From assembly GCA_048882505.1 (NCBI GenBank), contig JBHLRO010000006.1, forward strand, positions 25,485-89,484: 64,000 nucleotides of DNA. The letters are read 5' to 3'. A model generated the notes under the pieces. It had not been told where the DNA came from, did no database searches, and was given only the letters and a program-made list of their open reading frames with translations. The stretch is from Candidatus Thorarchaeota archaeon. GTDB taxonomy: Archaea; Asgardarchaeota; Heimdallarchaeia; Hodarchaeales; Hodarchaeaceae. This document shows, in pieces, positions 19,906 through 44,185 of the stretch. Numbering within the stretch: the first letter of the stretch is position 1; the number at the start of each line of letters is the position of its first letter. The position numbers and the translations under genes are program-made.

Positions 19906-21408
19906 TCAACTAGGGAAATACTCGTAATCGTTACGAACTTTAATTGAGTCCGCAATATAATTTTCAATCATTGATTTCTCAATTTTTGTTCCGAAAGAAG
20001 AATTGGCAGCCACGATATTCTTCCATTCCATGTAGTTTTCTTGGATTTCATTTTTGATATGGACAATTCGTTCTTCTAGCCTTGCCTGACCTAGATTTTG
20101 AACCACTGACCTAGCCTCGTCTACTTTTTCAAGTGCTTTCTCAATGTTTCCACGAATCAGCCAGATCTGTGCCTTAATGGCGAGAATTTCTGCCAATAAA
20201 GAGTTAGATTTTAGGTTGTCCGCGATTTGATACATTTCGTCTGTTAGACCATGCAGTTCGTTAATGACTTCGTCATCCTCAGCGATCTTCAGTTCAAGGA
20301 TTAAGAGAGAACATAAATTGAGATAGATGTCTATCTTTTCATAAGCAGATAAATTCTGAATTGTGAGCAATTTCTTAAAAATTGCCTGGCTTCTAGCCAG
20401 GTTCCTTACTCTTTTCCCTTGCATCGTTAGAAGTGCGTCAGTAAATTCGCAGAAATATGCAATCCTCTCCGAACGTGTCTGATTATAGAGTTCCTTTAAT
20501 TGTTCGTATTGGAATTTGGCTCCATCTATATTATTCTGACTTAGCTCGATCAACGCCAAATCTTTCAGGTCGTATCCCACAGAGTGATACATTTCCGTGT
20601 CCATTCTAATTTTTTTCGCCTTAGTAATGAGTTCTGCGGCTCGTTCATTATTTCCTGCTTTGAAATAGACTCTACCCAGTACTTCATGATAACACGCAAC
20701 TGCCCAGAGGGTACATCGTTCTTCGACAACCTGTAACGCCTGCTCACCATATTTCAGTGCTTCATCAAGCTCTCCTTTTCGTAGATGGATTTCGGATAAG
20801 GTTCCATATTGACAACACAGATAAGGTTTCTCAGTAGTTAATGCGATTGCAATACTCTTATGAATGCTTGAAATTCCCTTTTCCAGATCTCCAATTTCAC
20901 AATACATATTCCCCATGTCATTATACAACTTGGTTAGGATGTAGGGAAGATCTGCTTTCTCTCCAATGGCAATCGCCTTTTTCATGTAGTTTATTCCATC
21001 TGAATATTTCCCTTCAGCAAGGGCACAAAATGCCCTCACTCCATACGCGGTTGCCGCCCAAACCATTCCCGCTCGGTCTTCTGGAAGCGGATTTTCTTCA
21101 ATTTGCTTTAACACACCATCAATCACCTTGGTTGCTTCAAATCCCTTGTATTCGCGGAGTAACACCCTGCTTTGGACGATTTTCAACATCAGGTTTTCGA
21201 ATGGCGGTAATTCTCCATACTCTCTGTTAATTATAGGTGCAATGAGACTCCGTACTGTTGTTAAATCTCCGTGTAGAATTGTGAAAAATGCGTCATAGAT
21301 ATCGCCCTTTATTTGGTTTTGTTTCTTCAGCTCCTCTATTCGGTCATATGCTTGATTAATATTTCCCCCCCAAAAATCGGAAAAGATGTGATATTCCAAC
21401 TTCATCAT
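19906..21408 (-). CDS. TPR/alpha-solenoid repeat protein
   Basis: 500 aa with repeated 34-aa-like helical hairpins carrying W/L/G/Y/A/F/A/P-type positions (e.g. AIAIALTTEKPYLCCQYGTLSEIHLRKGELDEALKYGEQAL; LGRVYFKAGNNERAAELITKAKKI). No TM segments. It is divergent from the Rab-like GTPase gene. Confidence 0.55.
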   Translation of the reverse strand: MMKLEYHIFSDFWGGNINQAYDRIEELKKQNQIKGDIYDAFFTILHGDLTTVRSLIAPIINREYGELPPFENLMLKIVQSRVLLREYKGFEATKVIDGVLKQIEENPLPEDRAGMVWAATAYGVRAFCALAEGKYSDGINYMKKAIAIGEKADLPYILTKLYNDMGNMYCEIGDLEKGISSIHKSIAIALTTEKPYLCCQYGTLSEIHLRKGELDEALKYGEQALQVVEERCTLWAVACYHEVLGRVYFKAGNNERAAELITKAKKIRMDTEMYHSVGYDLKDLALIELSQNNIDGAKFQYEQLKELYNQTRSERIAYFCEFTDALLTMQGKRVRNLARSQAIFKKLLTIQNLSAYEKIDIYLNLCSLLILELKIAEDDEVINELHGLTDEMYQIADNLKSNSLLAEILAIKAQIWLIRGNIEKALEKVDEARSVVQNLGQARLEERIVHIKNEIQENYMEWKNIVAANSSFGTKIEKSMIENYIADSIKVRNDYEYFPS

Positions 21409-21923: not shown

Positions 21924-22553
21924 TTGGTAAAGGTTTTTGAAGGAGGAGAACCCCTCAAAATTGAACAGGTGGAAGAGCTGAACATAGACGAAATAATCCT
22001 CAAGATCTGCTCTATCGGTGATTACCAGGTGGGTAAAACCAGTCTTATTCACAGATATGCAGAGAATGTATTCAGTGAAGATTATTTACCTACCTTGGGG
22101 GTTGATATTACTACGAAACGTATTATTGTAGATGATACACCGATTAAATTGATTTTAATGGACACAGCAGGACAGGAACAGTTCGGTCGTATTCGTCGGT
22201 CGTATTTCCTAGGATGTGCAGGTTGTCTGATTGTCTACGATGTTACAAGGCGCGATTCTTTTGAATCTCTGGAACGATGGGTCAGAGAGTTTCGTTCCGG
22301 ACAACAACGAGAGAACAAGCCCATTGCGATTATAGGGAATAAGAACGATCTTAAGCAGGAGCGTCAGGTCGGGCGGCAGGAAGGGGAATCGTTTGCCAAG
22401 GTCATGGCAAATGTCTCCTTTTACGAATGTTCGGCGAAACTAGGGGGTCCTGAAATCCCCAGAATTTATGAAAATATTTCTCGTCAATACCTCAAATCGG
22501 TTCAATCGGGGCGGAATAGGGGGGACAAGGAACCGACTATGGTAACCCGATGA
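21924..22553 (+). CDS. Rab/Ras-like small GTPase
   Basis: 209 aa. Motifs: G1 GDYQVGKTSL, switch I LPTLGVDI, G3 DTAGQE, G4 GNKNDL, G5 ECSAK. The start is uncertain (TTG at 21924; a GGAGGAG ribosome-binding site sits at 21942-21948). Confidence 0.85.
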   Translation: MVKVFEGGEPLKIEQVEELNIDEIILKICSIGDYQVGKTSLIHRYAENVFSEDYLPTLGVDITTKRIIVDDTPIKLILMDTAGQEQFGRIRRSYFLGCAGCLIVYDVTRRDSFESLERWVREFRSGQQRENKPIAIIGNKNDLKQERQVGRQEGESFAKVMANVSFYECSAKLGGPEIPRIYENISRQYLKSVQSGRNRGDKEPTMVTR

Positions 22554-23676: not shown

Positions 23677-24564
23677 ATGAGCAGGATGACCACTCCAAGT
23701 GGAATTTATAGCGTGATGATATACAGCCTAGAATCACGTCGCATTCTCATTCATCGAATATATTCTCGGGATGAATCTGTGGTTAATAATCTAGACACGC
23801 TTTATTCAACCATTGTGTCCTTTAAAGGTGAAAACGAGGGGAAAGAAGATGTGTCAACGTTTCCAATGAAAACTAGAAAAATCTTAATTACTTCCGCTGA
23901 AAACTTAATCTTCATGATTGTGGTTGCACCCCATTATGGAACTATCGAAGCGGAAAAAATCCTATCTCATATCAGGGCATCATTTTTCCGTAAATATCCT
24001 CTTGGTGATTGCAACTGGCATTTTGATGAACACATGAACTATCTCGTGGGATTTAAAGCCGTCATAGATGAGATAGTGGAACACTTCGGCGACCCAAAGA
24101 CCATAGTAAAAATCGTGCTGATGGGAATAGACTACGCGGGCAAAACGACGTTAACACATGCTTACGCGGGGAGTAATTATCGAGATTATCTCCCTACAAT
24201 GGGACTGGACATTCTAAGAATAGAATACAAGAATAAACACATTCGTTTATGGGATCTTGGCGGGCAAATGCTGTTTAGAAGCTTATGGCCTAAGTTTGCG
24301 AATGAAGCATCTGGAATAATTTTTGTCGTTGATTCAGCCACAACCCGGTGGAGCGAAACCAAAGAAGTATTTGAAATCTCTCTGCTGTTTAAATTACCCT
24401 ATATCATATTTGCTAACAAACAGGATATAGTAAAACGAGCACAAAGCATTAACTTCATTGCGGAGAGGTTACAAGTTCCTGAAGAAAAAATAGTAAAAGG
24501 GAGTGCTTTATTGAACAAAGGGATCTATGAAGTCTTAGATGGGTTACTGGATGAAATTGGTTGA
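23677..24564 (+). CDS. Arf-like small GTPase with N-terminal longin/roadblock-like domain
   Basis: 295 aa. The N-terminal ~135 aa show beta-beta-alpha-beta-beta-alpha-like alternation (IYSVMIYSLESRRILIHRIY / VVNNLDTLYSTIV / ILITSAENLIFMIVVAP / TIEAEKILSHIRASFF). The C-terminal G-domain has G1 GIDYAGKTT, switch I PTMG, G3 WDLGGQ and G4 ANKQD, which are the Arf/Arl-type forms of these motifs. Confidence 0.8.
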   Translation: MSRMTTPSGIYSVMIYSLESRRILIHRIYSRDESVVNNLDTLYSTIVSFKGENEGKEDVSTFPMKTRKILITSAENLIFMIVVAPHYGTIEAEKILSHIRASFFRKYPLGDCNWHFDEHMNYLVGFKAVIDEIVEHFGDPKTIVKIVLMGIDYAGKTTLTHAYAGSNYRDYLPTMGLDILRIEYKNKHIRLWDLGGQMLFRSLWPKFANEASGIIFVVDSATTRWSETKEVFEISLLFKLPYIIFANKQDIVKRAQSINFIAERLQVPEEKIVKGSALLNKGIYEVLDGLLDEIG

Positions 24565-24627: not shown

Positions 24628-26361
24628 ATGATGGAAACATCAGAAGTGGCTACGATTGAGAAATTGCAGGAAAAGCTCAAATTCCGTCGAAAAGTTGAAA
24701 GGGCGATTGGGGATATTTCGACTTATCTTGTTTTTTCAAGTAGTTTCAACCTGTCCATCGAATATTTCCTCTCCGAAATCGCAGAACTATACCATTTCTA
24801 TTTTGTAGATGGGGCAGCTGTTTGTTTATTTGATGAACCTTCTAATGACCAAATTTCGGTACTTGGATGGAATTCAGAAAAAAATATAGATAATCGTGTA
24901 AATCTTAAGGAATTTCCGATTGGAAATTTCATCTGGTTCCAAAACCAGATCAAAGCAGGGCGCGAACTTGTTCTCACTGAAACTTATGAATTCTCGAATG
25001 AGGCCCAACCAGAAAAAGCCTTTTTTAGTGAACATACTATCAAATCCCTCATCGCAATCCCTATCTTCACTCCTGAATATATTGCGGGTACATTTGTGCT
25101 GGTTAGCCTATCCAACCAGGTGTGGCAGGAGGAAGATCTTCGTACCCTTAGATTGTTCGCTGAACTTTTGGGTACAGCAATCTTTCGAAAAAAAACGGAG
25201 GAGACGCTTTCAAAGGCGAGAGACTATTTAAAGGCTCAAATTGACCGAAAAACTGAGGATTTAAGCACTGAAAAGCAAAGAATCGAATTGATCCTGAATA
25301 CAATAAAGGATGGAGTCATCGTACTTGATCAAGATGGGAAGGTGACCATGGCTAATGAAACCTCAAAGCGATTTTTTAATCTGATTATGGATTTGCCGCT
25401 GATTATAGGCGTTAACCTAGTTTTAAGCACTGGAAATACGTTTTTTAGAACCATAAGAGGTCTCTTTTTGTCGTTTTTTAAAAACGAAGTGACAATTGAA
25501 CCTAAAAAGGGACTCCATCTTCAAATTGCCTCGGCTCGGGGAAAATATCCTGCCCTTCATACCTCCGGCATGATAATTGAGCTTCGAGACGTTACAGCGT
25601 TTATAGAGTTTGACAATATGCGAAAGCGATTCGTTTCTACCGTGAGTCATGAACTTCGAACCCCGATTACGGTTATTAATCAGTCCATCAATAATTATGA
25701 GAAATATGGAAATAAACTGCCAGAAAAGACCAAAACGAAATTATTCTCTGCAATCGCACGGAATTCCCGACTGCTTTATGAACTGGTGGAGGACCTACTT
25801 TTGATTTCTAAAATAGATGAACGAAGGATCGATGAGAGAGGATTTGAGCTCCATTGGCAGGACTACGATATAAAACAGATTATAGATGAAGTCACAACGC
25901 AATTAGAGCCCAGGGCCAAGGCCAAGGATATTAATATCCTTAAATCGGGTTTTGTGAAAGCGCCTATGTTTGGGGACCCGAATCGTGTTGCTCAGATATT
26001 TCGTGCATTAATTGATAATGCCATCAAATATTCTGGCAGTTCAAGTATAATTAGGATTACAGGAAAGGATGATTATACGGGAAAATACAATACGCAGGGA
26101 ATAAATGGAATTCTTGTTAAAGTTATCGATTCGGGGATTGGAATAGACGGGGAGGATCTACCAAAAGTATTTAATAGATTTTTTCGGGCCAAAAGTGTAA
26201 GTCACATATCGGGAACAGGATTAGGGTTAGGTATTGCTCGTGATCTTGTGAAGATGCATAAAGGGGAATTGTTTGTTGAAAGTGCCTTAGGAAAGGGAAC
26301 TATTACGCTTGTGTTTTTGCCTAGAATCACCGAGGCCGAGTTAAGACCTGAAGAGAGCTAA
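24628..26361 (+). CDS. cytoplasmic sensor histidine kinase (GAF-like + PAS + HisKA + HATPase_c)
   Basis: 577 aa with no TM segments. PAS: LILNTIKDGVIVLDQDGKVTMANETSKRFF. H-box: VSHELRTPITVI. N-box: DNAIKYS. G1: DSGIGI. G2: GTGLGLGIARDLVKMHKGELFVES. Confidence 0.9.
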   Translation: MMETSEVATIEKLQEKLKFRRKVERAIGDISTYLVFSSSFNLSIEYFLSEIAELYHFYFVDGAAVCLFDEPSNDQISVLGWNSEKNIDNRVNLKEFPIGNFIWFQNQIKAGRELVLTETYEFSNEAQPEKAFFSEHTIKSLIAIPIFTPEYIAGTFVLVSLSNQVWQEEDLRTLRLFAELLGTAIFRKKTEETLSKARDYLKAQIDRKTEDLSTEKQRIELILNTIKDGVIVLDQDGKVTMANETSKRFFNLIMDLPLIIGVNLVLSTGNTFFRTIRGLFLSFFKNEVTIEPKKGLHLQIASARGKYPALHTSGMIIELRDVTAFIEFDNMRKRFVSTVSHELRTPITVINQSINNYEKYGNKLPEKTKTKLFSAIARNSRLLYELVEDLLLISKIDERRIDERGFELHWQDYDIKQIIDEVTTQLEPRAKAKDINILKSGFVKAPMFGDPNRVAQIFRALIDNAIKYSGSSSIIRITGKDDYTGKYNTQGINGILVKVIDSGIGIDGEDLPKVFNRFFRAKSVSHISGTGLGLGIARDLVKMHKGELFVESALGKGTITLVFLPRITEAELRPEES

Positions 26362-26449: not shown

Positions 26450-26815
26450 ATGGTCGTAGAAGACAATCCTGATGTTTTGTTTAATCTAGTGGTAACGCTT
26501 GAAGCTAATGGATATGAAGCAGAAGTTGCCACAAATGGTAAGGAAGCCACAAGAGTTCTGTTGAAAAAAGATCCCGAATCACTACCAAGTCTAATAATCA
26601 GTGATATTATGATGCCGGAAATGGACGGGTACGAATTCTACCAATTTTTACAGGGGGATCAAGCATACAAGCATATACCCCTAATCTTTCTCTCCGCCCT
26701 CGCGACACCAGATGATATTCGCTTTGCGGAAATATTGGGTGCCAAAGATTACATAACAAAACCATATAATGAAGAAAAGTTGCTTACCTTGATTAGAGAG
26801 AAACTGGACGGGTAA
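26450..26815 (+). CDS. single-domain CheY-like response regulator (receiver only)
   Basis: 121 aa. MVVEDNPDVLFNLVVTLEANGYEAEVATNG...LIISDIMMPEMDGYEF...YITKPYN contains the phospho-acceptor Asp (DIMMP) and the conserved Lys (TKP). It lies 88 nt downstream of the HK gene on the same strand. Confidence 0.85.
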   Translation: MVVEDNPDVLFNLVVTLEANGYEAEVATNGKEATRVLLKKDPESLPSLIISDIMMPEMDGYEFYQFLQGDQAYKHIPLIFLSALATPDDIRFAEILGAKDYITKPYNEEKLLTLIREKLDG

Positions 26816-26822
26816 GTGATCC

Positions 26823-28067
26823 TCAAAATTCATAGAGGCCCCAACTGGCCGAGACTGTTCTCGGTTGTTGATCCACATGGATTCGTATGATTCTAGAGAA
26901 CCCGAAAACGTTTCCTAGACCTGTTAATAACCCTTCGATAACCCCTATAATTAGAAGTGAGCTTCCTTCTCGTGGTATCTCGATGTCTACCTGCATTCCA
27001 CCAGCAATATTACTTATTTCCACCCCAATTAGCTGATGAACTGGTTTATCCAGCATTTTACCTATATTTCCAGATAACCAATCCCTGAAGATATTGTTTG
27101 CCAGACTTTCGCCATAAGGAACGGAGAGCGCCTTAATTTTTTTCCAAAACTCTTTCGAGTCCGATTCAGGAGCTAGCTCTCCAGATAGGGTTTTCCATAC
27201 GTGGTTCTGAGTCTCAAAGAATATCGAACTTCTTAAAACATTGATCAATAGATCTTGGGGAATCATTCGGGCTAGAATTCGCATGAAGGCCAAGTAAAGA
27301 GAATCATCCAAGATGGAAGAAAGGAATACAGAATAACGGGGCCAGATAAACAGACCTTTAAAAGCCTTTAAGAAGTCTAAGAGATTGGGTTGGAGCTCGC
27401 TCACCTTGTTAGGATCATACTTATGAGCTAATAATCCGATGAAGGGCGATTCCTTCATTGCTTTGAGAACATTCATAATATCGGTTAGGTAAATGTACGC
27501 CTCTTCGAATTCGGCTGGGTTTTGGATATCAACCATGAAAATTAATGCTGTTAGGTTTTTCCACTTAAATTCGTCATAAACATGTTTTTTTACGTATTCC
27601 GTCTGTCCGCCTAAATCAAAAATGGTTAATTCAGTTTTTAAAACGTCTATGAACGAATTAAAAATAGAATAATCGACAGTTGGTCTGATCCTATCCAACT
27701 GTTCTTTGTTCCAGGAATCAAAAAATCCACGAATGGCTGTGGTCTTTCCTGCTTTTCTTAATCCTGCAACAACTATTTTAGGAAGTTTCCTCCTGGGTTT
27801 CTGAGAGGGAGGTGCGGGCAATTTGAATTCATGCGTAAACCATTCATCGAAAAACGAGTCAACTTTCTCTGTAACCTCAGGTGTAATGAAATCCAACTCT
27901 TGGTCTTTGAATCGCTCTTCAATACTATTCCCCAGATTTTCAATTATCGGATAGAGATCGTCCGAACTAGTACCTAGTGGAGTCATGACTGAGACCAGTA
28001 CAGAAGCGAACCTTTTTACATGTAGTTGGGAATTTGAAAAAACAAGCTCCTGAATGTCATCTTTCAC
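26823..28067 (-). CDS. Rag/Gtr-like small GTPase with C-terminal roadblock-like domain and N-terminal extension
   Basis: 414 aa. Motifs: G1 VVAGLRKAGKTT, G3 FDLGGQ, G4 LAHKYD. The HKxD form of G4 (instead of NKxD) is diagnostic of the Rag/Gtr family. The C-terminal ~150 aa carry a roadblock-like strand/helix pattern (VHQLIGVEISNIAGGMQVDIEI...SSLLIIGVIEGLLTGL). There is an N-terminal extension of about 95 aa. Confidence 0.7.
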   Translation of the reverse strand: MKDDIQELVFSNSQLHVKRFASVLVSVMTPLGTSSDDLYPIIENLGNSIEERFKDQELDFITPEVTEKVDSFFDEWFTHEFKLPAPPSQKPRRKLPKIVVAGLRKAGKTTAIRGFFDSWNKEQLDRIRPTVDYSIFNSFIDVLKTELTIFDLGGQTEYVKKHVYDEFKWKNLTALIFMVDIQNPAEFEEAYIYLTDIMNVLKAMKESPFIGLLAHKYDPNKVSELQPNLLDFLKAFKGLFIWPRYSVFLSSILDDSLYLAFMRILARMIPQDLLINVLRSSIFFETQNHVWKTLSGELAPESDSKEFWKKIKALSVPYGESLANNIFRDWLSGNIGKMLDKPVHQLIGVEISNIAGGMQVDIEIPREGSSLLIIGVIEGLLTGLGNVFGFSRIIRIHVDQQPRTVSASWGLYEF

Positions 28068-28548
28068 GATTTCCTTAGAGAACTGAATTAATGCCGAAAG
28101 AAATCCCGATATTAGCTGACTGTCATGGTCCAGAAAGAACGAGGGTTCAAAGTTTTTTTGATAAAGCTCTATCCCTGTGTCAATGTTTATGACTGAAATC
28201 CGTTTAATGGAAGATTGAGAAGGATCTGACGTCGTTGATTTCGCTCCAGTCTGCGAAGATTGAGGATTACAACTTACGTTATGAATACTTTAGTCGAGAA
28301 ATATCCCGTACAATGTATTTCCGAACTGGAATACTATGATGTTCATGTGACCGATTCTCCTTAAGGGTGAAGGAAATTCGTCTGATGCACTGAAACTTGT
28401 CAAACCATATTTATTAACTTAGTCATATTTATCGATTTCAGAAATTCTCTAGCAGGTTTTCAAATGTTCACTAAAAGCAAAATGTTTTGAAGAAGTATTG
28501 ATATGATAAAGAAAGCATAAGTGAACGATCCCCATTGGAGTGAAGTAA

Positions 28549-29268
28549 ATGGGAAAAGACAACAACGGTCAGGAATACGAATCGTTTTATGATCTTTGGG
28601 AACGTATAAAAAGCGAAGAATTAACTATTTTACCAGAAGAATCCAAAACCCATATTGAAGAGAATTTATTCCTTGATGAACAAGGAGGGGAGTATTTTAT
28701 GAAGATTGTATTAGCAGGGGATGGTGCCGTTGGAAAAACTTCCTTAAGACGAAGTTTTTTAGGCGAGGATTTTTCATTTGACTACCAAACGACAATCGGA
28801 GCCGATTTTGCCACCCATCGGGAACAAATAGCCAATCGATCCGTGAAATTTGTAATTTGGGATCTGGCAGGCCAACCCCAGTTTCATCAGGTAAGAAAAA
28901 CGTTCTATTCCGGGGCACACGGAGCACTTGTTGTATGTGATTTAACCAATCCCACCTCGTTCGAAAACCTGAAGCACTGGATAAATGAACTATGGCGATA
29001 CAATGCGGAAGGGCCCGTGCCCTTTGTCATTGTGGGAAACAAATGCGATCTTAGGGATTTGGGATATGCAAGAATTTCTGATAAAAAGATTCATTCTGTT
29101 ACAAAAATCATTAATGAAGAAACCTCACGGAAAAGTGGGTTTGGCGTCAAATCCATTACCACAAGTGCACGAACGGGGGAAGGAGTAATAGAAGCGTTCA
29201 AGCAGTTAGCTGTCCAAATTATTGCACATCGTAACTACATCAGGAGAAAGCGTCAAAAACCCGAGTAA
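28549..29268 (+). CDS. Rab-like small GTPase with ~50-aa N-terminal extension
   Basis: 239 aa. Motifs: G1 GDGAVGKTSL, switch I YQTTIGADF, G3 WDLAGQ, G4 GNKCDL, G5 TSAR. Confidence 0.85.
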   Translation: MGKDNNGQEYESFYDLWERIKSEELTILPEESKTHIEENLFLDEQGGEYFMKIVLAGDGAVGKTSLRRSFLGEDFSFDYQTTIGADFATHREQIANRSVKFVIWDLAGQPQFHQVRKTFYSGAHGALVVCDLTNPTSFENLKHWINELWRYNAEGPVPFVIVGNKCDLRDLGYARISDKKIHSVTKIINEETSRKSGFGVKSITTSARTGEGVIEAFKQLAVQIIAHRNYIRRKRQKPE

Positions 29269-29363: not shown

Positions 29364-30263
29364 CTAGCGTAAATTAGAGGAGGTAGTTGATAGAATTTTG
29401 ACAAAATTATCCCAGTTCAGATTCTCAGAGAACTGGTTTCCGTGCTTATAGTCTGTTGCCATCTTTTCAAATTCCTCCTTTATTCTGAGGGACGCGAGAT
29501 AGTTAATTTTCTGAGCTAGAAGGACGATCATAAATTGGCGTTTGCCCCCTCTAACTTCTGGATCTTCAATCGTATCAAAGTAAATATAGCCGTCTCGGTC
29601 GATGTTTGCGATTCGTAATAAAACCCCTTGTGGCTCATAATAATCCAGCTGGCCGTAGACTGAGACCGCGGTTTGAAACAGCTGGGTGCCAAGCTGGCGT
29701 AAGTCAAACTTAGTGTTGGAATCTGATGGAAAGATATCTCTTACTTTGGGACCATAAGCTTCATCCCATATCACATTAAAGAGTATAACTTCTCCTCTTT
29801 CACTTGGGGTCATTGAAGAACCGAGCTCATTTCGCAAGGATGTAAGCAGGTTTTTTTCGATTTGTTTACCCAGTTCTTTGTTTTTTATACTCCGCTGGAT
29901 CTTTCCGGCAATTGATGATAACAAATCCTTGTCGTTGAAGGGTTTGGTGATATAATCATCTACTCCAAGTATTTTGCCAAAACGTACATCCTCAGGAGAT
30001 GCTTTCGCTGTAAGAAAGATAAAAGGGATAAAACTCCACGCCGGGTTATCAGAAACACGGCTGAAAAATTCGTATCCGTCCATTTCCGGCATCATGATGT
30101 CACAGAGGAAGAGGTCTGGGGGTTCATCGAGTTCAGATAACATGTTGAAGGCTTCGATGCCATTTTTTGCGCCTATCGGCCTGTATCCATTGAATTCCAA
30201 CAATAATTCCAGGTTGTAGAGGATTTTAGCATTATCTTCAATGATAAATATTGTAGGTTTCAT
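29364..30263 (-). CDS. response regulator: receiver domain fused to C-terminal roadblock/longin-like alpha/beta domain
   Basis: 299 aa. The N-terminal REC is MKPTIFIIEDNAKILYNLELLLEFNGYRPIG...LFLCDIMMPEMDGYEFF...YITKPFN, with high identity to the 26450 receiver. The C-terminal ~150 aa show a beta-alpha-beta-beta-alpha pattern (EVILFNVIWDEAYGPKV / LRQLGTQLFQTAVSVYGQL / GVLLRIANIDRDGYIYFDTI / RQFMIVLLAQK / INYLASLRIKEEFEKM). It lies 52 nt downstream of the hybrid HK on the same strand. Confidence 0.75.
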   Translation of the reverse strand: MKPTIFIIEDNAKILYNLELLLEFNGYRPIGAKNGIEAFNMLSELDEPPDLFLCDIMMPEMDGYEFFSRVSDNPAWSFIPFIFLTAKASPEDVRFGKILGVDDYITKPFNDKDLLSSIAGKIQRSIKNKELGKQIEKNLLTSLRNELGSSMTPSERGEVILFNVIWDEAYGPKVRDIFPSDSNTKFDLRQLGTQLFQTAVSVYGQLDYYEPQGVLLRIANIDRDGYIYFDTIEDPEVRGGKRQFMIVLLAQKINYLASLRIKEEFEKMATDYKHGNQFSENLNWDNFVKILSTTSSNLR

Positions 30264-30315: not shown

Positions 30316-32394
30316 CTAATTGACCAATACGGGGAGAAAAACTGAAAAAGTTGATCCTTTGCCTAATTCGCTGTCCACGAAGACTTCCCCGTTTTGAATT
30401 GCTGCTAATTCCTTTGCGATCGATAATCCCAGCCCGGTTCCAGGCACATCCTTCACATTGCTTGCTCTGAAAAAGCGATCAAATATATAGGGCATGTCCC
30501 TTTCACTTATGCCGATTCCAGCATCATTAACTTGAATTAATAGACCATCAAGTTTTTTCGGGTTGTATTTCCCCTGATAATCAGTTATAGCCCCAATCGT
30601 AACAGTCGTTCTTTCAGCAGAGTATTTAATGGCATTATCCATTAGGATGCGTAACATTTGGCCAAGTCTTTTCGAATCTCCCACTATTTCAACTGCAGGA
30701 GGTATATTGGTGCTAATTGTGATATTCTTTACCAGTCGTGCGGGCTCTAATTGGATTAATACTTCGCTTATAATGTCCCAAAGCGCATATGTGCTTACAT
30801 CCAGCTTCAATTCACCGCTCTCTATTCTGGATACGATCAAAAGATCTTCTATCATTTGATTCAGAACAGTAGAACTCTCTGCAACCATATCAACAATACT
30901 ATCAATCTGTGCCGCTGATAACTGGTCGCGGTAGTTCTGTAAATTCCTAATTGAGAGGTCAATCGCGGTAATTGGAGTTCTGAGTTCATGAGACACCATT
31001 GAGATAAATTGCTCTCTGAGTCGATCCAGTTCCACCAGAGAAGTCACATCGCGGACTGTGATTACAATGCCAATAGGAGGGTTTGGTGGATTTAATACCA
31101 TAGAGGAGGTAAGCTGAAGGAAAAGCCCTGGGTGAGGCTCGATGGTTTTGTATTCCTTCTTTTGAGAAAAAAATGCCTTGGCAATCGCCTCGCCAAATGG
31201 ATGTCCGATACTGGGGATATCGCGGAGGAGTGGAGGTAACTCCTTGTTATAAATCCTCTTGTAGAATTTCTTGAATATTTCATTAACATAATAAACTCGG
31301 CCTTCAGTGTTAAAAACAACGACCCCATCAGGGATGGTTTCCACAATCCTCTCAATTCGCTGTTTTTCTTCCGTTAAGTTTTGTGTGGCTATTTCGACTT
31401 TTCGTGCCAAGGAATCTTTGGTTCGTTTTAACGCTTCTTCAGCCATCTTCCGCTTGGTGATGTCTTCAAAACTGCCTTCATAGTATAATACCGACCCCTG
31501 TTCATCTTTTATTGCTTTCGCATTCTCCCGGATAAAGACCGTGGAGCCATCCAGTCTCTTAAGCTTCTGTTCAAACCCTCTAATCTCGTCTGCTCTCTCG
31601 ATCAATTCCCGAAAATCTTGTCTCGGATAGTCCATCTTGGTCGATAACTCATTCATATTAATGGCACGCATTTCTTCCAATGAGGAAAACCCCATCATTC
31701 GTATGAATTCGGCATTTGCTGCAAGTAGCTTTCCGCCTGGTGTCATTCGATAAAGTCCGATGGGCATACCTTCAAATAACGTGCGATACCTTTTTTCGCT
31801 TTGTTTAAGCGCTTCCTCCATTGATTGACGCTCAATGAGTTGATCTCGGAGTTTATTAACTAATTGCCTTCTTTCTTTCTCCAGATGCAGCCTCTCAAGG
31901 GTATCCCGGATCTTAATTAGCACATCCTGGACATCAAAGGGTTTAACTATGTAAGCTGATGCCCCCATGTTTAGGGCACCGATTGCTGATTCCTGTGACG
32001 CATATCCCGTTATGATCATCATCACAAGATCTGGTTGCAATTCCTTCATCACTTTTAACAAGCGAATGCCATCAAGATCAGGTAATCTAATGTCTAAAAG
32101 GGCAATATCGTATATTCTTTCTTTCAGCTTATCCATAGCATCTTTCCCAGTATATGCGGAATTCGCAATATATCCGGCTTTCTTAAAAATTAGTTTTAGT
32201 AAACTACATGTATTATCATCATCATCATCTACGATCAGAATTCTCCCTGTGATCTTATTGTAAGTACGTTGAATAGTTCGGGCAGATTCATCTAGAATGG
32301 ATTTGTCAAGTTCTTTAAGGTTTTCTGCGTTATTTAGAAGTAATGAGAAATCCTTTGGCGAATTCGTGTTTTGATGTTCCCTGTTATTTTCCAT
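30316..32394 (-). CDS. cytoplasmic hybrid sensor histidine kinase (REC + 2xPAS + HisKA + HATPase_c)
   Basis: 692 aa. REC: GRILIVDDDDDN...DIALLDIRLPDLDG...IVKPFD. PAS: KRYRTLFEGMPIGLYRMTPGGKLLAAN and QRIERIVETIPDGVVVFNTEGRVYYVN. H-box: VSHELRTPITAI. N-box: DNAIKYS. G1: NDAGIGIS. G2: GTGLGLSIAKEL. Confidence 0.9.
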   Translation of the reverse strand: MENNREHQNTNSPKDFSLLLNNAENLKELDKSILDESARTIQRTYNKITGRILIVDDDDDNTCSLLKLIFKKAGYIANSAYTGKDAMDKLKERIYDIALLDIRLPDLDGIRLLKVMKELQPDLVMMIITGYASQESAIGALNMGASAYIVKPFDVQDVLIKIRDTLERLHLEKERRQLVNKLRDQLIERQSMEEALKQSEKRYRTLFEGMPIGLYRMTPGGKLLAANAEFIRMMGFSSLEEMRAINMNELSTKMDYPRQDFRELIERADEIRGFEQKLKRLDGSTVFIRENAKAIKDEQGSVLYYEGSFEDITKRKMAEEALKRTKDSLARKVEIATQNLTEEKQRIERIVETIPDGVVVFNTEGRVYYVNEIFKKFYKRIYNKELPPLLRDIPSIGHPFGEAIAKAFFSQKKEYKTIEPHPGLFLQLTSSMVLNPPNPPIGIVITVRDVTSLVELDRLREQFISMVSHELRTPITAIDLSIRNLQNYRDQLSAAQIDSIVDMVAESSTVLNQMIEDLLIVSRIESGELKLDVSTYALWDIISEVLIQLEPARLVKNITISTNIPPAVEIVGDSKRLGQMLRILMDNAIKYSAERTTVTIGAITDYQGKYNPKKLDGLLIQVNDAGIGISERDMPYIFDRFFRASNVKDVPGTGLGLSIAKELAAIQNGEVFVDSELGKGSTFSVFLPVLVN

Positions 32395-36524: not shown

Positions 36525-39395
36525 TTGTTCATGCCAGTTTTTGCTCTGGATTCTACTGTGTATATCGTGTTTTCTGCGGAGCACTCGACATCCTATGAAA
36601 TACATGGGCCAATTTACATCGTTGGAAACCAAGATTTTCATACTCAAGCCAGTTCAGAAAATTGGGCGGGAAATGGAACACTAACCTCCCCGTACGTCAT
36701 CGAGAGCCTCTATTTGGTCGGCCAAGCTGACTTGATTCGAATAGAAGGTACGGATGTATTTTTTAGTATCAATAATTGCTGGATAGGATTCGGATCTAAT
36801 GGGATTTCCTTGGCTAATGTAACCAACGGGCGGATTATGGGCAATAACATCACCTATAACGACGGTTACGGAATTGATCTCTGGGCTTCCACAAATACTC
36901 TCATTTCGGGGAATACAATCACAAACAACAATAACATCGGAATAAATCAGAATTACCTGGAAAATACCACGATCTCAGGGAATATAATATCCAAAAACGG
37001 CGGGGGGGGAATAGATGGAAGTTTCTCTAATAGAAGTTCCATAATTGGCAATACTATTTCTGAGCATTGGGGAACTGGTATTCATATGTATATCTCGATT
37101 GGCAATATCATTGACAGTAATAACCTAACTGGTAACCGAATCAATGGCATCGGCCTTGAAGGGTCATCCAATATCACTATAACCAGCAATACCCTTACGA
37201 GTAACGGTGGATCTGGGATAAATCTAGCCTACTCTGGGAATAATCGCATTATTGATAATAGCCTAGTAAACAATGGTCTAAATATTGATGGCTGGGAGCT
37301 TGAGCACTATTTACAAACTGAAGTGGCCAATAATTCAGTTAATGGTAAGTTAATAGTTTATTGGCAGCAGATTACTGGGGGAACCGTCCCAACGGGCGCT
37401 GGCGAAGTTATTTTGGTGAATTGCACAGGAATCGAGGTTACTGGACTGACCATTGAGAATGCATCGACAGGGATCCGTGTTGTTTTCGGTTCTAATGTAG
37501 TAATACACGATAATAACATTTTCAATATGGTTAGATCTGGAATTGATATAGGAAACACACAGAATACTACGATAACGGGGAATACTCTTACCAATAATTC
37601 CGATGGCATCATTTTTCAAAATTCCATATCTGGAATCATCACTGGGAACAAAATTAGAAACAGGGGTGGTCGGGGACGGGGAATGGGAATAAGATTGGAT
37701 TATTCCCATAAAATTAATGTTTCAGGGAACATCATCAGCAATAACGAATACAATGGCATTTGGCTAGAATCATCTGATAGTAATCATATTGCAGCCAACA
37801 ATATCACTGATAACGGACACAACGGCATTCGTTTGGGAGCTTCCAGTAATAACACTATTTTGGGTAATAATATCCTAAATAACTCACACCATGGTATTCG
37901 TGTGAGGGATTCAGGAAACAGTACGGTTTTAGGCAATACTGTCGTTGCCAGCGGCGTGGATGGGATTAATATTGCTAACGCGGGCAGTTCGACCATTTCG
38001 AGCAATGCGGTGATTGATAATGAGAGAATTGGAATGCATTTTGTTTCTTCGGGAAATAATCGAATTACTGATAACATCCTTGTAAACAATGGCATGGATG
38101 TTGAAGGTGGGGCCCTCGAGGATTATGTACAAGCTGATGTGGGCAATAATTCGATTGATGGGAAACCGATAATTTATTTTCAGCAGGTTACCGGAGCGAC
38201 CGTCCCATACGATGCGAGTGAAGTGTTTTTGGTCGATTGTCATGACGTCGCGGTGATCGATTTGACCCTTTCGGACGGTTTGTTAGGTATGGTGGCTGCC
38301 TATAGCTCTAACTTGAGGATTTCCGGTAATAAAATATCCAGTAATGTAAGAGAAGGGATACGTTTGTATCGTACGGATAATAGCATTATTTCTGATAATT
38401 CTGTTAAAGACAACGGATGGGATGGTATTCATCTGAGTGCCGCAGGTTATAACGTTATATCGGATAACGATGTCATTAATAACGGAGGATGGGGGATTAC
38501 AGTGTCTGATTCCGAAACAAACATCATTTCAGGAAATTTGGTAACGCAAAGTACCGATGGTATTAACATAGACTCCTCGAATAATCCCATCATTACAAGC
38601 AATACCGTTAGGGATAACAGCGGATCTGGTTTACGGATAAGATTTACGCCAGGAAGCAATATTTCCACCAACACCATTACTAACAACGGAGCCTCGGGAA
38701 TATACTTGGAAGGATCTGGGGAGAGCATTATCGGAGAAAATTCTATTACGAGGAGTCATGAGGCAGGCGTCTATCTGCTTCAATCAAACGGTTGCAACAT
38801 TACCAGCAATATAATCATGGAAAATGAAGGGATCGGCCTTGATCTATTCTTTGCTGAGAATGCTGTCGTTTCAGGAAATGCAGTTGGTAATAACAACCTT
38901 TGGGGAATTATGTTACGTCATTCACAGGACAGCTTAATAATGGAGAATTCAGTAAACGATAATGAAGTCGGTGGCGTCTACCTGTCAGGATCTGGAAGTA
39001 CTAAAATTTTGGGTAATCTAATCGCCAATAACTCATATTATGGAATCTATCTAACCCAATCAGCCGGATGCGTTGTCGCTGGAAATAACTTCATTGGAAA
39101 CAACAGAGTGAATGAGCAAGCATTTGATGATAGCCCAAATAATACGTTTATTTTTAATTACTGGAATGACTGGACAGGCCCAGATACCAATCGAGACGGA
39201 GTGGTAGATCAACCTTACCGCATTGATGGAACAGCAAATAACTACGATAACTTTCCTCTGATTAACCCTGTCGTAGATCACGCAGTTGCAACCCCTGATC
39301 ATTTGGTTACTGTTTCCTTTCTGGTTCTCGTGATTCTTGGCGCTATAGGGTTTTCAACTCGGATTAAACGCGGGGACAAAACTGCCAGGATTTGA
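36525..39395 (+). CDS. large right-handed parallel beta-helix (PbH1/NosD-like) repeat surface protein with internal duplication and C-terminal TM anchor
   Basis: 956 aa. N-terminal motif IYIVGNQDFHTQASSENWAGNGTLTSPYVIE. Two homologous halves: HYLQTEVANNSVNGKLIVYWQQITGGTVPTGAGEVILVNCTGIEVTGLTIEN versus DYVQADVGNNSIDGKPIIYFQQVTGATVPYDASEVFLVDCHDVAVIDLTLSD. There are dozens of ~22-aa beta-helix repeats. Conserved C-terminal motif NNTFIFNYWNDWTGPDTNRDGVVDQPYRIDG. TM helix LVTVSFLVLVILGAIGFS. Confidence 0.75.
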   Translation: MFMPVFALDSTVYIVFSAEHSTSYEIHGPIYIVGNQDFHTQASSENWAGNGTLTSPYVIESLYLVGQADLIRIEGTDVFFSINNCWIGFGSNGISLANVTNGRIMGNNITYNDGYGIDLWASTNTLISGNTITNNNNIGINQNYLENTTISGNIISKNGGGGIDGSFSNRSSIIGNTISEHWGTGIHMYISIGNIIDSNNLTGNRINGIGLEGSSNITITSNTLTSNGGSGINLAYSGNNRIIDNSLVNNGLNIDGWELEHYLQTEVANNSVNGKLIVYWQQITGGTVPTGAGEVILVNCTGIEVTGLTIENASTGIRVVFGSNVVIHDNNIFNMVRSGIDIGNTQNTTITGNTLTNNSDGIIFQNSISGIITGNKIRNRGGRGRGMGIRLDYSHKINVSGNIISNNEYNGIWLESSDSNHIAANNITDNGHNGIRLGASSNNTILGNNILNNSHHGIRVRDSGNSTVLGNTVVASGVDGINIANAGSSTISSNAVIDNERIGMHFVSSGNNRITDNILVNNGMDVEGGALEDYVQADVGNNSIDGKPIIYFQQVTGATVPYDASEVFLVDCHDVAVIDLTLSDGLLGMVAAYSSNLRISGNKISSNVREGIRLYRTDNSIISDNSVKDNGWDGIHLSAAGYNVISDNDVINNGGWGITVSDSETNIISGNLVTQSTDGINIDSSNNPIITSNTVRDNSGSGLRIRFTPGSNISTNTITNNGASGIYLEGSGESIIGENSITRSHEAGVYLLQSNGCNITSNIIMENEGIGLDLFFAENAVVSGNAVGNNNLWGIMLRHSQDSLIMENSVNDNEVGGVYLSGSGSTKILGNLIANNSYYGIYLTQSAGCVVAGNNFIGNNRVNEQAFDDSPNNTFIFNYWNDWTGPDTNRDGVVDQPYRIDGTANNYDNFPLINPVVDHAVATPDHLVTVSFLVLVILGAIGFSTRIKRGDKTARI

Positions 39396-41137: not shown

Positions 41138-44100
41138 GTGATGAAACTTGAATGTAAGTCTTATTTTAGGTTTTTTATTATAAACATCGAGTTTTTGGTT
41201 TTGGTCAGTCTGATAACGATAACTATGATAACCTTGACACCACAACTGCAACCATCGAATTCTTATTCAAACACGGATCAGAAACAGTCCAGTTTTGAGA
41301 TAGATGAACCCTTGAATACTCCTGTGGATAGGGCAACACCTTCAAATCTCGATAAAACAGTTTCCTCTGCTTTATGGTCTGGATCTTTATCCTTTCAAGA
41401 AAATCAGGGGCAATTTGGAAATTCTGCTGTTCGATATTATTTTAACGGAAGGGATTTTGGAATTGCGTTTTCCAGGACCGGGGTGACATATAAACTAACA
41501 TCTGCCCTTGCTCAAGAGAAAAATATTCAGGCTTCTTTGTTTGATCTCGAATCAAGTTATGGACACGAACATCCATCCTTATCGTCTGGCCTGAGCACTT
41601 ATATTAACATAGTTTTCGATAACTCCAACGCTGTTCAGCCAATGGGTCGTGAAGTGCATACCCATATGAGAAACTACCTGATCGGAAATGCTCCCGACTC
41701 ATGGGTGACAGGGGTGAGGAGTTATGCTAGAGTTTTGTATGAAGAGTTATATTCTGGAGTCGATTTAATTTACTATTTTACTGCTGACGGACTCAAATAT
41801 GAGTTTAGATTGCAGAACGGGGCGGATCCCGCCATCATTCGTATGCGGTACAAAGGAGTAGACGAGCTTGAGATCGATGAACTGGGAAATTTGGTCGCCA
41901 GGACGGCTGCGGGCCCTCTCCAAGACCAGAATTTGTTGATTTATCAGAATACAGCTCATGGGCAGCATGAGATCCGGGGACAGTTTATCCTTTTGGATAG
42001 GTTGACTGTTGGCTTTCAAATACTCGAACCTTACGATCAAAACAGACCGCTTATCATCGATCCTCTGGTCTGGTCAACTTTCCTGGGCGGTGCTTCAGGA
42101 GACTTAGGGTATGCACTTGCACTGGACACGGCAGATAATGTTTACGTGACAGGGCACACAGCAGATAGCATTCCCGATTTTCCTACTACCCCAGGTGCTT
42201 TTAATACGAGCCACAGTGGTTTCGACGACGTATTTGTTGCAAAATTCAGTGCGAATGGGACTAGATTGCTCTATTCTACGTTCATAGGAGGAAGTGGACC
42301 TGATTTCGGCTATGCTCTAACACTGGACAATGCCAATAATACATACTTGACTGGACTTACGACAAATCATACCATCGATTTTCCCACTACTGCAGGGGCG
42401 GTTAATACTACCCACAACGGGAATTCCGACGTATTTGTTACGAAACTCAGCGCAGACGGAACCAGTTTGCTGTTTTCTACTCTTTTGGGGGGTAGCGGGG
42501 TCGATGTGGGTTATGCAATTGCGCTGGACCCCTCCAATAATGTCTACGTAACGGGATACACAGAGGACGCCGCGACCGATTTTCCTACGACGGTAGGTGC
42601 CTTTAACACGAGTCACAATGGTGGAAATGATGTATTTGTTACGAAACTCAGCGCGGATGGCACTAGCTTACTCTATTCCACGTTTTTAGGGGGTAGCGGG
42701 ATGGACGAGGGCCGTGCCCTGATGGTAGACGGAGCCATGAATACTTATGTGACGGGGCACACGGAAGATCATACGACCGACTTTCCCACCACTGTAGGTG
42801 CGATCAACACGAGTCATAACGGGATTTTCGATGTATTTATCTTAAAATTAAGCCCCTCCGGGGGAAGCTTATTGTATTCCACCTTTCTCGGAGGTAGTGG
42901 GGTAGATTTCGGTTATGCCTTAGCTATGGATGGTGCGAATAATGTTTATATTACTGGGTCAACAGATGACGCCACAACAGACTTTCCCACCACCGTAGGA
43001 GCAGTTAACACGACCCACAGCGGAGGTTCGGATGTATATATTGCGATAATCAGTGCAGACGGTACGAGCTTACGTTACTCTACATTTTTGGGAGGGAGCG
43101 GACTTGATCAGGGTAATGCTATCGCCTTAGATAGTGATAATAATATATATGTAACGGGATTCACGGAAGACCATACGACTGATTTTCCCGTTACTACGGT
43201 AAGTTATGACGGTACTCATAATGGAGCGGAGGATGTCTTTGTCAGCAAGCTTGACGCAAATGGTACGGCCCTGAGATATAGTACATTCCTGGGAGGCAGC
43301 GGAAGCGAACGGGGAAATGCCCTTGCGGTGAATGATGTAAATATGGTTTACGTTGGAGGTAACACAGGTGACGCCATTATCGATTTTCCTGCCACCCCAG
43401 GCGCCGTAAATACGACCCATAATGGTGGCACTGATTTATTTGCTTTCTTAATTCGAATTCCCACCGTGACATCCCCTCCAGTAGGATTATCTGCTGGTTT
43501 AGCTGGAAATCAAGGAGTTGTTTTATTTTGGAACGCACCTAGTAATGATGGAGATGCGCCGGTTACTTCATACCGCATTTATAGGAGTACAACGAGTGGA
43601 AGCTATGGGGTATTACTTGCAGAGACTTCAATCCTCAAACTCTGGTTCAATGATTCAACAGTGGTTAGTGGACAGACCTATTATTACGTAGCGACCGCGA
43701 TAAACGGGATGGGGGAAAGTGTTTGGTCAAATGAGGTCAGTATTACACTTCTTGCCGCAATCACTATCCCAGGCGTGCCGCAGAATGTTTCCACCTCTGC
43801 AGGAAGACACTTTATCGTAATTACTTGGGATCTGCCAACAAGTGATGGGGGATCCGCTATCATTCATTACAAAGTTTATCGGGGGACAATGAGTGGCGAA
43901 TACCTATTACTCGGTATCTCGATTAATCGTCAGTTCAACGATACTACAGCGGTCGGGGGGATAACCTATTATTATACGGTGACTGCGCTTAATGCTGTTG
44001 GGGAGAGTTTCCTTTCCATGGAGACCAGCAAGACAGCACTTATGGAAATGACTACGATTACCACTACAACAATCGTTACGACAAGCTCAACGACTGCCAC

Positions 44101-44185
44101 GCCAAGCGTATTTCCACAATTGCCACTAATATTGTTTTTTCTGTGCTCCCTTGTGATAGGGACTCATCGAAGAAGTAGAGTGTAG
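41138..44185 (+). CDS. surface protein: N-terminal domain + seven-blade SBBP beta-propeller repeats + two FN3 domains + Thr-rich linker + C-terminal TM anchor
   Basis: 1015 aa. Seven ~60-aa repeats of 'STFLGGSG.D.GYALALD..NN.YVTG.T.D...DFPTT.GA.NT.H.G..DVFV.KLSADGTSLLY' (SBBP-type). Two FN3-like modules (PPVGLSAGLAGNQGVVLFWNAPSNDGDAPVTSYRIYR...QTYYYVATAINGMGES and a second copy). Thr-rich stretch TTITTTTIVTTSSTTATPS. Anchor: FPQLPLILFFLCSLVIGTHRRSRV. Confidence 0.75.
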   Translation: MMKLECKSYFRFFIINIEFLVLVSLITITMITLTPQLQPSNSYSNTDQKQSSFEIDEPLNTPVDRATPSNLDKTVSSALWSGSLSFQENQGQFGNSAVRYYFNGRDFGIAFSRTGVTYKLTSALAQEKNIQASLFDLESSYGHEHPSLSSGLSTYINIVFDNSNAVQPMGREVHTHMRNYLIGNAPDSWVTGVRSYARVLYEELYSGVDLIYYFTADGLKYEFRLQNGADPAIIRMRYKGVDELEIDELGNLVARTAAGPLQDQNLLIYQNTAHGQHEIRGQFILLDRLTVGFQILEPYDQNRPLIIDPLVWSTFLGGASGDLGYALALDTADNVYVTGHTADSIPDFPTTPGAFNTSHSGFDDVFVAKFSANGTRLLYSTFIGGSGPDFGYALTLDNANNTYLTGLTTNHTIDFPTTAGAVNTTHNGNSDVFVTKLSADGTSLLFSTLLGGSGVDVGYAIALDPSNNVYVTGYTEDAATDFPTTVGAFNTSHNGGNDVFVTKLSADGTSLLYSTFLGGSGMDEGRALMVDGAMNTYVTGHTEDHTTDFPTTVGAINTSHNGIFDVFILKLSPSGGSLLYSTFLGGSGVDFGYALAMDGANNVYITGSTDDATTDFPTTVGAVNTTHSGGSDVYIAIISADGTSLRYSTFLGGSGLDQGNAIALDSDNNIYVTGFTEDHTTDFPVTTVSYDGTHNGAEDVFVSKLDANGTALRYSTFLGGSGSERGNALAVNDVNMVYVGGNTGDAIIDFPATPGAVNTTHNGGTDLFAFLIRIPTVTSPPVGLSAGLAGNQGVVLFWNAPSNDGDAPVTSYRIYRSTTSGSYGVLLAETSILKLWFNDSTVVSGQTYYYVATAINGMGESVWSNEVSITLLAAITIPGVPQNVSTSAGRHFIVITWDLPTSDGGSAIIHYKVYRGTMSGEYLLLGISINRQFNDTTAVGGITYYYTVTALNAVGESFLSMETSKTALMEMTTITTTTIVTTSSTTATPSVFPQLPLILFFLCSLVIGTHRRSRV
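42070..43450 (+). repeat. seven tandem ~180-bp coding repeats (SBBP propeller blades) inside the 41138-44185 gene
   Basis: Near-identical nucleotide strings recur, e.g. 'gatgtatttgttacgaaactcagcgc(a/g)ga(c/t)gg' at ~42430 and ~42640, and 'gattttcc(c/t)ac(c/t)ac' repeatedly. Confidence 0.6.

Follow-up and report, generated by a model that had tools for sequence, protein, structure and literature searches.

A receiver-longin response regulator in an Asgard archaeal island of small GTPases and two-component genes

We analysed 64,000 nucleotides (nt) of a Candidatus Thorarchaeota archaeon (contig JBHLRO010000006.1, positions 25,485 to 89,484; hereafter the window, in whose numbering all positions are given). 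Here a gene on the reverse strand (29364-30263 (-)) encodes a protein that is almost certainly a two-component receiver joined to a longin domain of the folliculin/NPRL2/C9orf72 kind. In the list of open reading frames (ORFs) the gene has an ATG start and runs to 299 amino acids (aa) plus a stop codon, and its product is a 100% match to an NCBI protein of a Candidatus Thorarchaeota metagenome-assembled genome, where it is labelled 'PleD family two-component system response regulator'. The protein is likely, as we predict, to be a regulator of small GTPases. The explanation that best accounts for the whole of the evidence, and which we consider reasonably probable, is that it is a phosphorylation-gated longin regulator, probably a GTPase-activating protein (GAP), of the neighbouring Arf/Rag-like GTPases.

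The N-terminal part of the protein is a canonical receiver (REC), as a preliminary description of this DNA had stated. Pfam Response_reg (PF00072) covers aa 5-118 (29910-30251 (-)) with E=3.6e-21 and 75.8 bits against a cut-off of 30.2, and the active-site set is complete, comprising the acidic pair E9-D10, the phospho-acceptor D55 in LFLCDIMMPEMDGYEF (codon 30099-30101 (-)), T85 in FLTAK and K107 in ITKPF (codon 29943-29945 (-)); the codons of D55 and K107 were checked in the DNA. These phosphorylation positions are retained across the 91 receiver-bearing members of the family that shares the C-terminal domain, with D in all 83 that align there, T or S in 84 of 86 and K in 90 of 91. The receiver is followed by a helical linker (aa 119-157, 29793-29909 (-)), which prolongs receiver helix alpha5 in a full-length AlphaFold2 model, so that one long helix over aa 111-150 joins both domains. 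This model was built from a five-sequence alignment, has low to moderate confidence over the joining helix and gives the C-terminal half a predicted local distance difference test score (pLDDT) of 35-60.

Modelled alone by AlphaFold2 from a 103-sequence alignment, the C-terminal domain reached a pLDDT of 91.8 and a predicted template modelling score (pTM) of 0.87. Over aa 158-298 (29370-29792 (-)) the elements follow in the order beta1-beta2-alpha1-beta3-beta4-beta5-alpha2-alpha3, with strands at residues 160-167, 171-178, 212-218, 223-233 and 241-250 and helices at 188-203, 255-273 and 284-296. Roadblock domains are ordered alpha-beta-beta-alpha-beta-beta-alpha, with a helix first and two strands after the central helix. 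Because the domain here has the order beta-beta-alpha-beta-beta-beta-alpha-alpha and no N-terminal helix, it is a longin and not a roadblock domain. The preliminary description had proposed a roadblock/longin-like module with a beta-alpha-beta-beta-alpha alternation; the longin fold stands, and the roadblock assignment and that element order do not. Identity with Roadblock/LC7 (PF03259) was rejected both for the differing order of elements and for the lack of a profile match.

The closest solved structures to the C-terminal domain are likewise longin domains. The structure match list is headed by a Lokiarchaeal longin domain (8yqg, 13.5), followed by folliculin (FLCN; 12.2), the Lst4 longin (11.6), C9orf72 (10.8), Npr2 (10.1), DENND1A (10.0) and NPRL3 (9.9), with Roadblock/MglB/LAMTOR domains at about 8-9. 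In Foldseek the top match to the same model was FLCN in its active GAP complex (8dhb, E=8e-5), ahead of NPRL2, Npr2, the Loki longin, DENND10 and FNIP2. Sequence profiles gave no such assignment: the C-terminal domain alone (aa 125-299) had no match in Pfam and none among Protein Data Bank (PDB) sequences, and no Pfam family exceeded its threshold on the longin region of the window protein or of any of the 103 family members, three of which gave sub-threshold matches (E<=0.1) to Folliculin (PF11704).

We counted conservation over 103 representatives with pairwise identities of 50% or less. The positions that vary least in the family include W166 (101/103), D167 (85/103), G171 (103/103), P172 (100/103) and R238 (85/103). 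The first four form WD and GP motifs in W166-D167-E-A-Y-G171-P172 (29748-29768 (-)), which spans the end of beta1 and the start of beta2, and R238 (29550-29552 (-)) lies within EVRGGKRQF in the beta4-beta5 loop, where conservation and weak alignments make it a candidate arginine finger. The strands of a longin are ordered 2-1-5-4-3, all antiparallel, and from this order the beta1-beta2 and beta4-beta5 turns should be neighbours on the same edge of the sheet.

A similar set of motifs has been described in eukaryotes. According to a 2025 study (PMC12290439), eukaryotic longin GAPs have a GP motif in the loop before beta2 or at its start, and the arginine finger neighbours this motif in FLCN, NPRL2 and SMCR8 (R147). 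The study places the WD motif of C9orf72 at W33-D34 and reports the GP motif as absent from FNIP2, NPRL3, adaptins, TRAPP subunits and DENND proteins; it also notes that some Asgard 'Folliculin/SMCR8-type' longins have the GP motif and the arginine, with no mention of receivers. The protein in the window resembles the eukaryotic GAP longins in its GP at the beta1-beta2 turn, in a loop arginine that falls, in weak alignments, near the position of FLCN R164 and NPRL2 R78, and in a WD of the C9orf72 type. Its W-D-x3-G-P spacing is that of C9orf72 W33-D34...G38-P39, and when the family profile was compared with PDB sequences the C9orf72 longin ranked first, over the whole domain and with WDxxxGP in register, at a non-significant E=0.13. 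Whereas C9orf72 has WD and GP, and SMCR8 has GP and the arginine, all three elements stand here on one polypeptide. The chain stops at aa 299, just past longin helix alpha3, with neither a DENN domain nor the NPRL2-specific C-terminal domain; it is therefore a relative of the longin domain alone and not an orthologue of FLCN or NPRL2.

An exhaustive search with a hidden Markov model built from an alignment of five homologues placed the C-terminal domain in a family of 259 clusters, each counted by one representative at 50% identity, with E<=1e-3; 148 of them reach E<=1e-10. With that many homologues, the gene can be taken as real. Narrower searches reached fewer relatives: a word-indexed protein search returned five homologues with the aa 125-299 query, all of them a receiver plus the same C-terminal domain, and eight with the family alignment, and a narrow-alignment profile scan of a genome collection matched a single Hodarchaeota contig (L001). 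All family members that carry an organism name are Asgard archaea (Thor-, Hod-, Heimdall-, Hel- and Lokiarchaeota). Among the listed matches with at least 100 residues before the longin, 81 of 91 fit a narrow receiver profile built from five sequences.

The longin occurs in many other combinations, here identified by Pfam. These include kinase plus REC (P0053, P0074), PAS-HATPase (P0100), PAS (P0029, P0038), GAF (P0140), RsbRD_N (P0018) and DUF1638 (P0016), as well as longin plus TPR in two distant members (P0134, P0146). Joined as it is to PAS, GAF, RsbRD_N and kinase modules, the longin behaves like a signalling output module. It is also repeatedly fused to small GTPases, which are Arf-like in P0027, Ras/Rab-like in P0050 (a cluster of eight members) and Arf-like together with a REC in P0131 of Heimdallarchaeota LC_3. 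The locus of this last protein (L004, 4728-8212 of MDVS01000037.1) holds tandem paralogues of 567 and 573 aa, each a REC plus an Arf-like domain by Pfam. In the first of them, P0131 (OLS23803.1), the longin profile lies at aa 426-561, and the NCBI label 'Transforming protein p29 precursor' is misleading.

We compared gene neighbourhoods in ten loci, the window included, that were chosen for contig size. A small GTPase is fused to the regulator or lies no more than two genes away in seven of the ten. The GTPase is adjacent in the window (where it is Rab-like) and in L011, fused in the two tandem paralogues (L004/L005), present on both sides in L008, part of a GTPase-kinase-regulator series running in one direction in L009, and two genes off in L001 and L010; in a further locus (L002) a Rag-like GTPase lies about 6.4 kb off. 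A kinase is nearby or fused in at least six of the ten loci. The binomial p for GTPase adjacency, roughly estimated, lies between 1e-6 and 5e-4 for a background of 1.9-5% of genes, and the divisor for the 1.9% figure is the MK-D1 gene count of about 3,900. The 74 small GTPases on which that figure is based are those counted in MK-D1 by Tran et al. (PMC10933270).

The Hodarchaeota contig L001 carries the same set of island genes in a rearranged order, with identities to the window of 60% for the Rab-like GTPase (28549-29268), 59% for the Arf-like, and 61% for the Rag-like; the longin domain is about 50% identical. The GTPase beside the regulator gene in three Lokiarchaeal loci is nearest to the Arf-like and Rag-like proteins of the window and not to its Rab-like ones, and among possible partners of the regulator an Arf/Rag-like GTPase is the likeliest, ahead of the convergent Rab-like one. 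The preliminary description had tied the regulator to small-GTPase control. That link is borne out by the Arf-like and Ras/Rab-like fusions and by the presence of a GTPase within two genes in most sampled loci.

Two features of these relatives are of interest in themselves. In L008 (189-13519), the gene of the kinase-REC-longin protein P0053 (821 aa) has a roadblock-Arf-like GTPase on one side and an Arf/Rag-like GTPase on the other. It lies immediately downstream of a CheA / CheW-CheC chemotaxis cluster, which may mean that chemosensory signalling and small GTPases are connected in that Asgard genome. In two Lokiarchaeal loci (L009, 4460-8912; L010, 6907-8879), a 111-aa ArsR-type HTH_5 protein is encoded directly upstream of the Arf/Rag-like GTPase gene and may be a conserved fourth component.

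Within the window the regulator gene belongs to a discrete island of about 10.5 kb that contains four small GTPases, two kinases, a stand-alone receiver and the receiver-longin gene itself. At one edge is a Ras/Rab-like small GTPase of 209 aa (21924-22553 (+); Pfam Ras E=2.1e-47), followed by an Arf-like GTPase of 295 aa (23677-24564 (+); Pfam Arf E=1.4e-28, aa 134-293), a histidine kinase with GAF-PAS-HisKA-HATPase domains by Pfam (24628-26361 (+)), the stand-alone receiver (26450-26815 (+)) and a Rag/Gtr-like GTPase with extra N- and C-terminal domains (26823-28235 (-); Pfam Gtr1_RagA E=7.8e-18). The best solved relatives of this Rag-like protein among PDB sequences are the GTP-binding protein 8yl2, Sar1, Gtr1/2 and RagA/C. 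A second Ras/Rab-like GTPase, of 239 aa (28549-29268 (+); Pfam Ras E=2.6e-40), and a histidine kinase with REC-PAS-PAS-HisKA-HATPase domains by Pfam (30316-32394 (-)) flank the regulator gene. A motif scan of all long ORFs, together with Pfam on ten other large ORFs, revealed no further small GTPase in the 64-kb window.

Much of this arrangement had been read correctly from the start. The regulator gene converges on the 239-aa Ras/Rab-like GTPase gene across a 95-nt gap, its receiver is a close paralogue of the stand-alone one (49% identity, E=1e-39), and a kinase gene lies 52 nt upstream on the same strand. The description of that kinase as a hybrid needs amending: its own receiver is N-terminal (aa 52-162; 29% identical to that of the regulator) and is therefore an input domain, not a classical C-terminal hybrid receiver. 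It is the probable cognate kinase of the receiver-longin protein.

Several genes of the island and its flanks have features of their own. The ORF listed for the Rag-like GTPase (26823-28067) begins with GTG at 28067 and encodes 414 aa, about 55 N-terminal residues short of its orthologues (467 and 464 aa). The missing N terminus (…SIKRISVINIDTGIELYQKNFEPSFFLDHDSQLISGFLSALIQFSKEI) is encoded in frame directly upstream, and with it the identity to the L001 protein is 61% over 465 aa. The region 28068-28289 (-) holds no ATG, GTG or TTG and, as possible starts, only ATT, ATA, ATC and CTG, which suggests that the gene uses a non-canonical start, that its start codon has been lost or that the assembly is wrong here. 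In the Arf-like GTPase (23677-24564), aa 1-130 form an uncharacterised domain that has no Pfam match and is kept by the Hodarchaeota orthologue (59% over 290 aa). Membership of this domain in the longin family of the regulator was rejected (hhalign probability 0.2%, no relation); by analogy with the GTPases of MK-D1, it may be another longin or roadblock module. A 500-aa TPR protein (MalT-like TPR region) is encoded at the island edge (19906-21408 (-)), and the longin-TPR fusions P0134 and P0146 suggest that TPR proteins may partner the longin module. Farther out are three paralogous NosD/right-handed beta-helix proteins (9034-10632, 36525-39395 and 44263-45570 (+)) and a large DUF7948/beta-propeller/fn3 protein (41138-44185), all of them probably surface or secreted proteins that seem unrelated to the island.

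We hypothesize that the kinase encoded 52 nt upstream (30316-32394) would phosphorylate D55 of the receiver, and that the signal would travel along the long helix that prolongs receiver alpha5, probably through altered dimerisation. The solved structure of the Loki longin 8yqg is a dimer, and in eukaryotic GAP longins the partner is a second longin. Phosphorylation of D55 would set the arrangement or the accessibility of the longin, which would bind at least one Arf/Rag-like GTPase of the island (23677-24564, 26823-28235). There it would most probably stimulate GTP hydrolysis, with R238 as the arginine finger beside the W166-D167/G171-P172 hairpin. For this last prediction, that the protein is an arginine-finger GAP, we would claim slightly less than an even chance.

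The alternative that survives best, although we think it unlikely, is that the longin is a guanine-nucleotide exchange factor (GEF) or a docking platform or effector specific for one nucleotide state, with phosphorylation controlling recruitment or exchange. Precedents exist in the TRAPP, Mon1-Ccz1 and DENN longins and in Myxococcus RomR-RomX. However, the best structural matches to the regulator are the GAP-type longins FLCN, Lst4, C9orf72 and Npr2. The GP motif and loop arginine, absent from GEF-type longins according to PMC12290439, are moreover strongly conserved in this family. It is more improbable still that the longin stands outside GTPase control, as a module for protein-protein interaction or membrane targeting like the SNARE longins and adaptor sigma/mu subunits, its adjacency to GTPase genes then reflecting their high density in Asgard genomes. 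The direct fusions to Arf-like and Ras/Rab-like domains argue against this, as do an adjacency well above the rough background, the absence of any SNARE or transmembrane segment in the protein, and nearest folds that are GTPase regulators. A PAS/GAF-like small-molecule sensor, with which the protein would integrate a ligand and phosphorylation, is hardly credible: no Pfam PAS or GAF match was found, PAS/LOV structures appeared only at Foldseek E>=0.02, and the check for an unrelated C-terminal fold that the preliminary description had envisaged returned, with AlphaFold2 and Foldseek, a longin.

Other observations weigh against a GAP-type longin regulator of neighbouring GTPases. At the level of sequence, homology to eukaryotic GAP longins is not significant, and kinship with them rests for that reason on fold and motifs. 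Pfam Folliculin (PF11704) scored only 13.9 bits on the window longin against a cut-off of 23.3. Aligned by hhalign with FLCN and NPRL2, whose query sequences were checked against PDB entries, the family gave a 20-column local match to FLCN (E=0.13), with R238 (EVRGGKRQF) opposite R164 (LARGFQRWY). The NPRL2 alignment spans 83 columns from beta1 to beta5, in the right register, and places GP on G20-P21 and R238 within one residue of R78, with E=0.0028 but a probability of only 11%. The proposed equivalence of R238 to the FLCN/NPRL2 arginine finger draws on these weak alignments and on loop position, and the residue is absent from 17% of the representatives. Eukaryotic GAP longins, furthermore, act as heterodimers, and their additional C-terminal domains, DENN or others, have no counterpart in this protein. 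The full-length model has low quality over the linker and does not define how the two domains are arranged. As for gene order, the ten loci are not a random sample, and two of them are without a nearby GTPase: none was found in L006, a short contig, and none within 10 kb in L007.

The architecture has been noted before. Liu et al. (bioRxiv 10.1101/2020.10.19.343400, Fig. 5c) report, in a single sentence with one panel, Asgard NPRL2-like longins fused to two-component domains. They propose that Asgard growth control has remained centred on two-component systems with 'eukaryotic' regulators, an inference like ours that puts growth or nutrient control under such systems. Judged by that brief description, their class has the same architecture as the protein in the window, an NPRL2/folliculin-kind longin with receiver or kinase modules in Asgard archaea. 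The gene is thus a well-supported member of an already described class, and the idea of the link, raised in the preliminary description too, appeared in a preprint in 2020. Their account does not mention the WD, GP and arginine motifs, the GTPase fusions or the conserved GTPase neighbourhood, all of which were found here. Tran et al. (PMC10933270) describe longin-GTPase fusions in MK-D1, with no link to receivers or kinases. Within the reach of our literature searches, what appears to be added is the presence of WD, GP and arginine on one chain, the size of the family, the GTPase fusions of this particular longin family and the conserved island. As the idea is already in print, the gene is of value as a clearly delimited test case and for what its motifs, fusions and gene order add as evidence.

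Other systems provide partial parallels. The longin domain of the Lokiarchaeal Roadblock-Longin protein (8yqg) shows only 9% identity and is fused to a roadblock domain, not to a receiver; a literature search found no paper on PDB 8yqg or on Loki Rag-like structures. Two-component parts are also wired to a Ras-superfamily GTPase in Myxococcus, through RomR/FrzS/AglZ with MglA-MglB, and in the Streptomyces conservons, which combine a kinase, a roadblock protein and a GTPase (PMC4316618). In those bacteria, however, the receiver and the roadblock regulator are separate proteins, and MglB is without such an arginine finger, whereas in the window a receiver is covalently fused to a eukaryote-like longin.

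The best structural matches lie in the eukaryotic longin GAP complexes FLCN-FNIP (Lst7-Lst4), GATOR1 NPRL2-NPRL3 (Npr2-Npr3) and C9orf72-SMCR8. The FLCN, NPRL2 and C9orf72-SMCR8 complexes act on Rag and Arf GTPases, and both a Rag-like and an Arf-like gene lie near the regulator gene here. The input differs, being a receiver domain in the archaeal protein and an amino-acid-sensing complex in eukaryotes, and no second longin subunit was identified.

Growth and lysosome signalling in eukaryotes run through the longin GAP complexes GATOR1, folliculin and C9orf72-SMCR8 acting on Rag/Arf GTPases. The family described here, of about 260 clusters, couples a longin with GAP-type motifs to a prokaryotic phosphorylation switch in the nearest archaeal relatives of eukaryotes, and the island offers a small, soluble and tractable system in which a kinase, the 299-aa regulator and four GTPases are encoded within about 10.5 kb. 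This system bears on whether Asgard longins are GAPs and on whether two-component input preceded eukaryotic nutrient sensing, a proposal that Liu et al. based solely on domain architectures. We tentatively propose, as a possibility that is more doubtful than the predictions above, that receiver-longins are homodimers gated by phosphorylation and serve Asgard Arf/Rag-like GTPases as arginine-finger GAPs, with WD, GP and arginine on one chain and a two-component kinase as input, and that they represent a pre-eukaryotic form of the GATOR1/folliculin/C9orf72-SMCR8 switches. If this is true, a single chain would hold the elements that were later split between C9orf72 and SMCR8, and a two-component kinase would give the input that amino-acid sensors give in eukaryotes.

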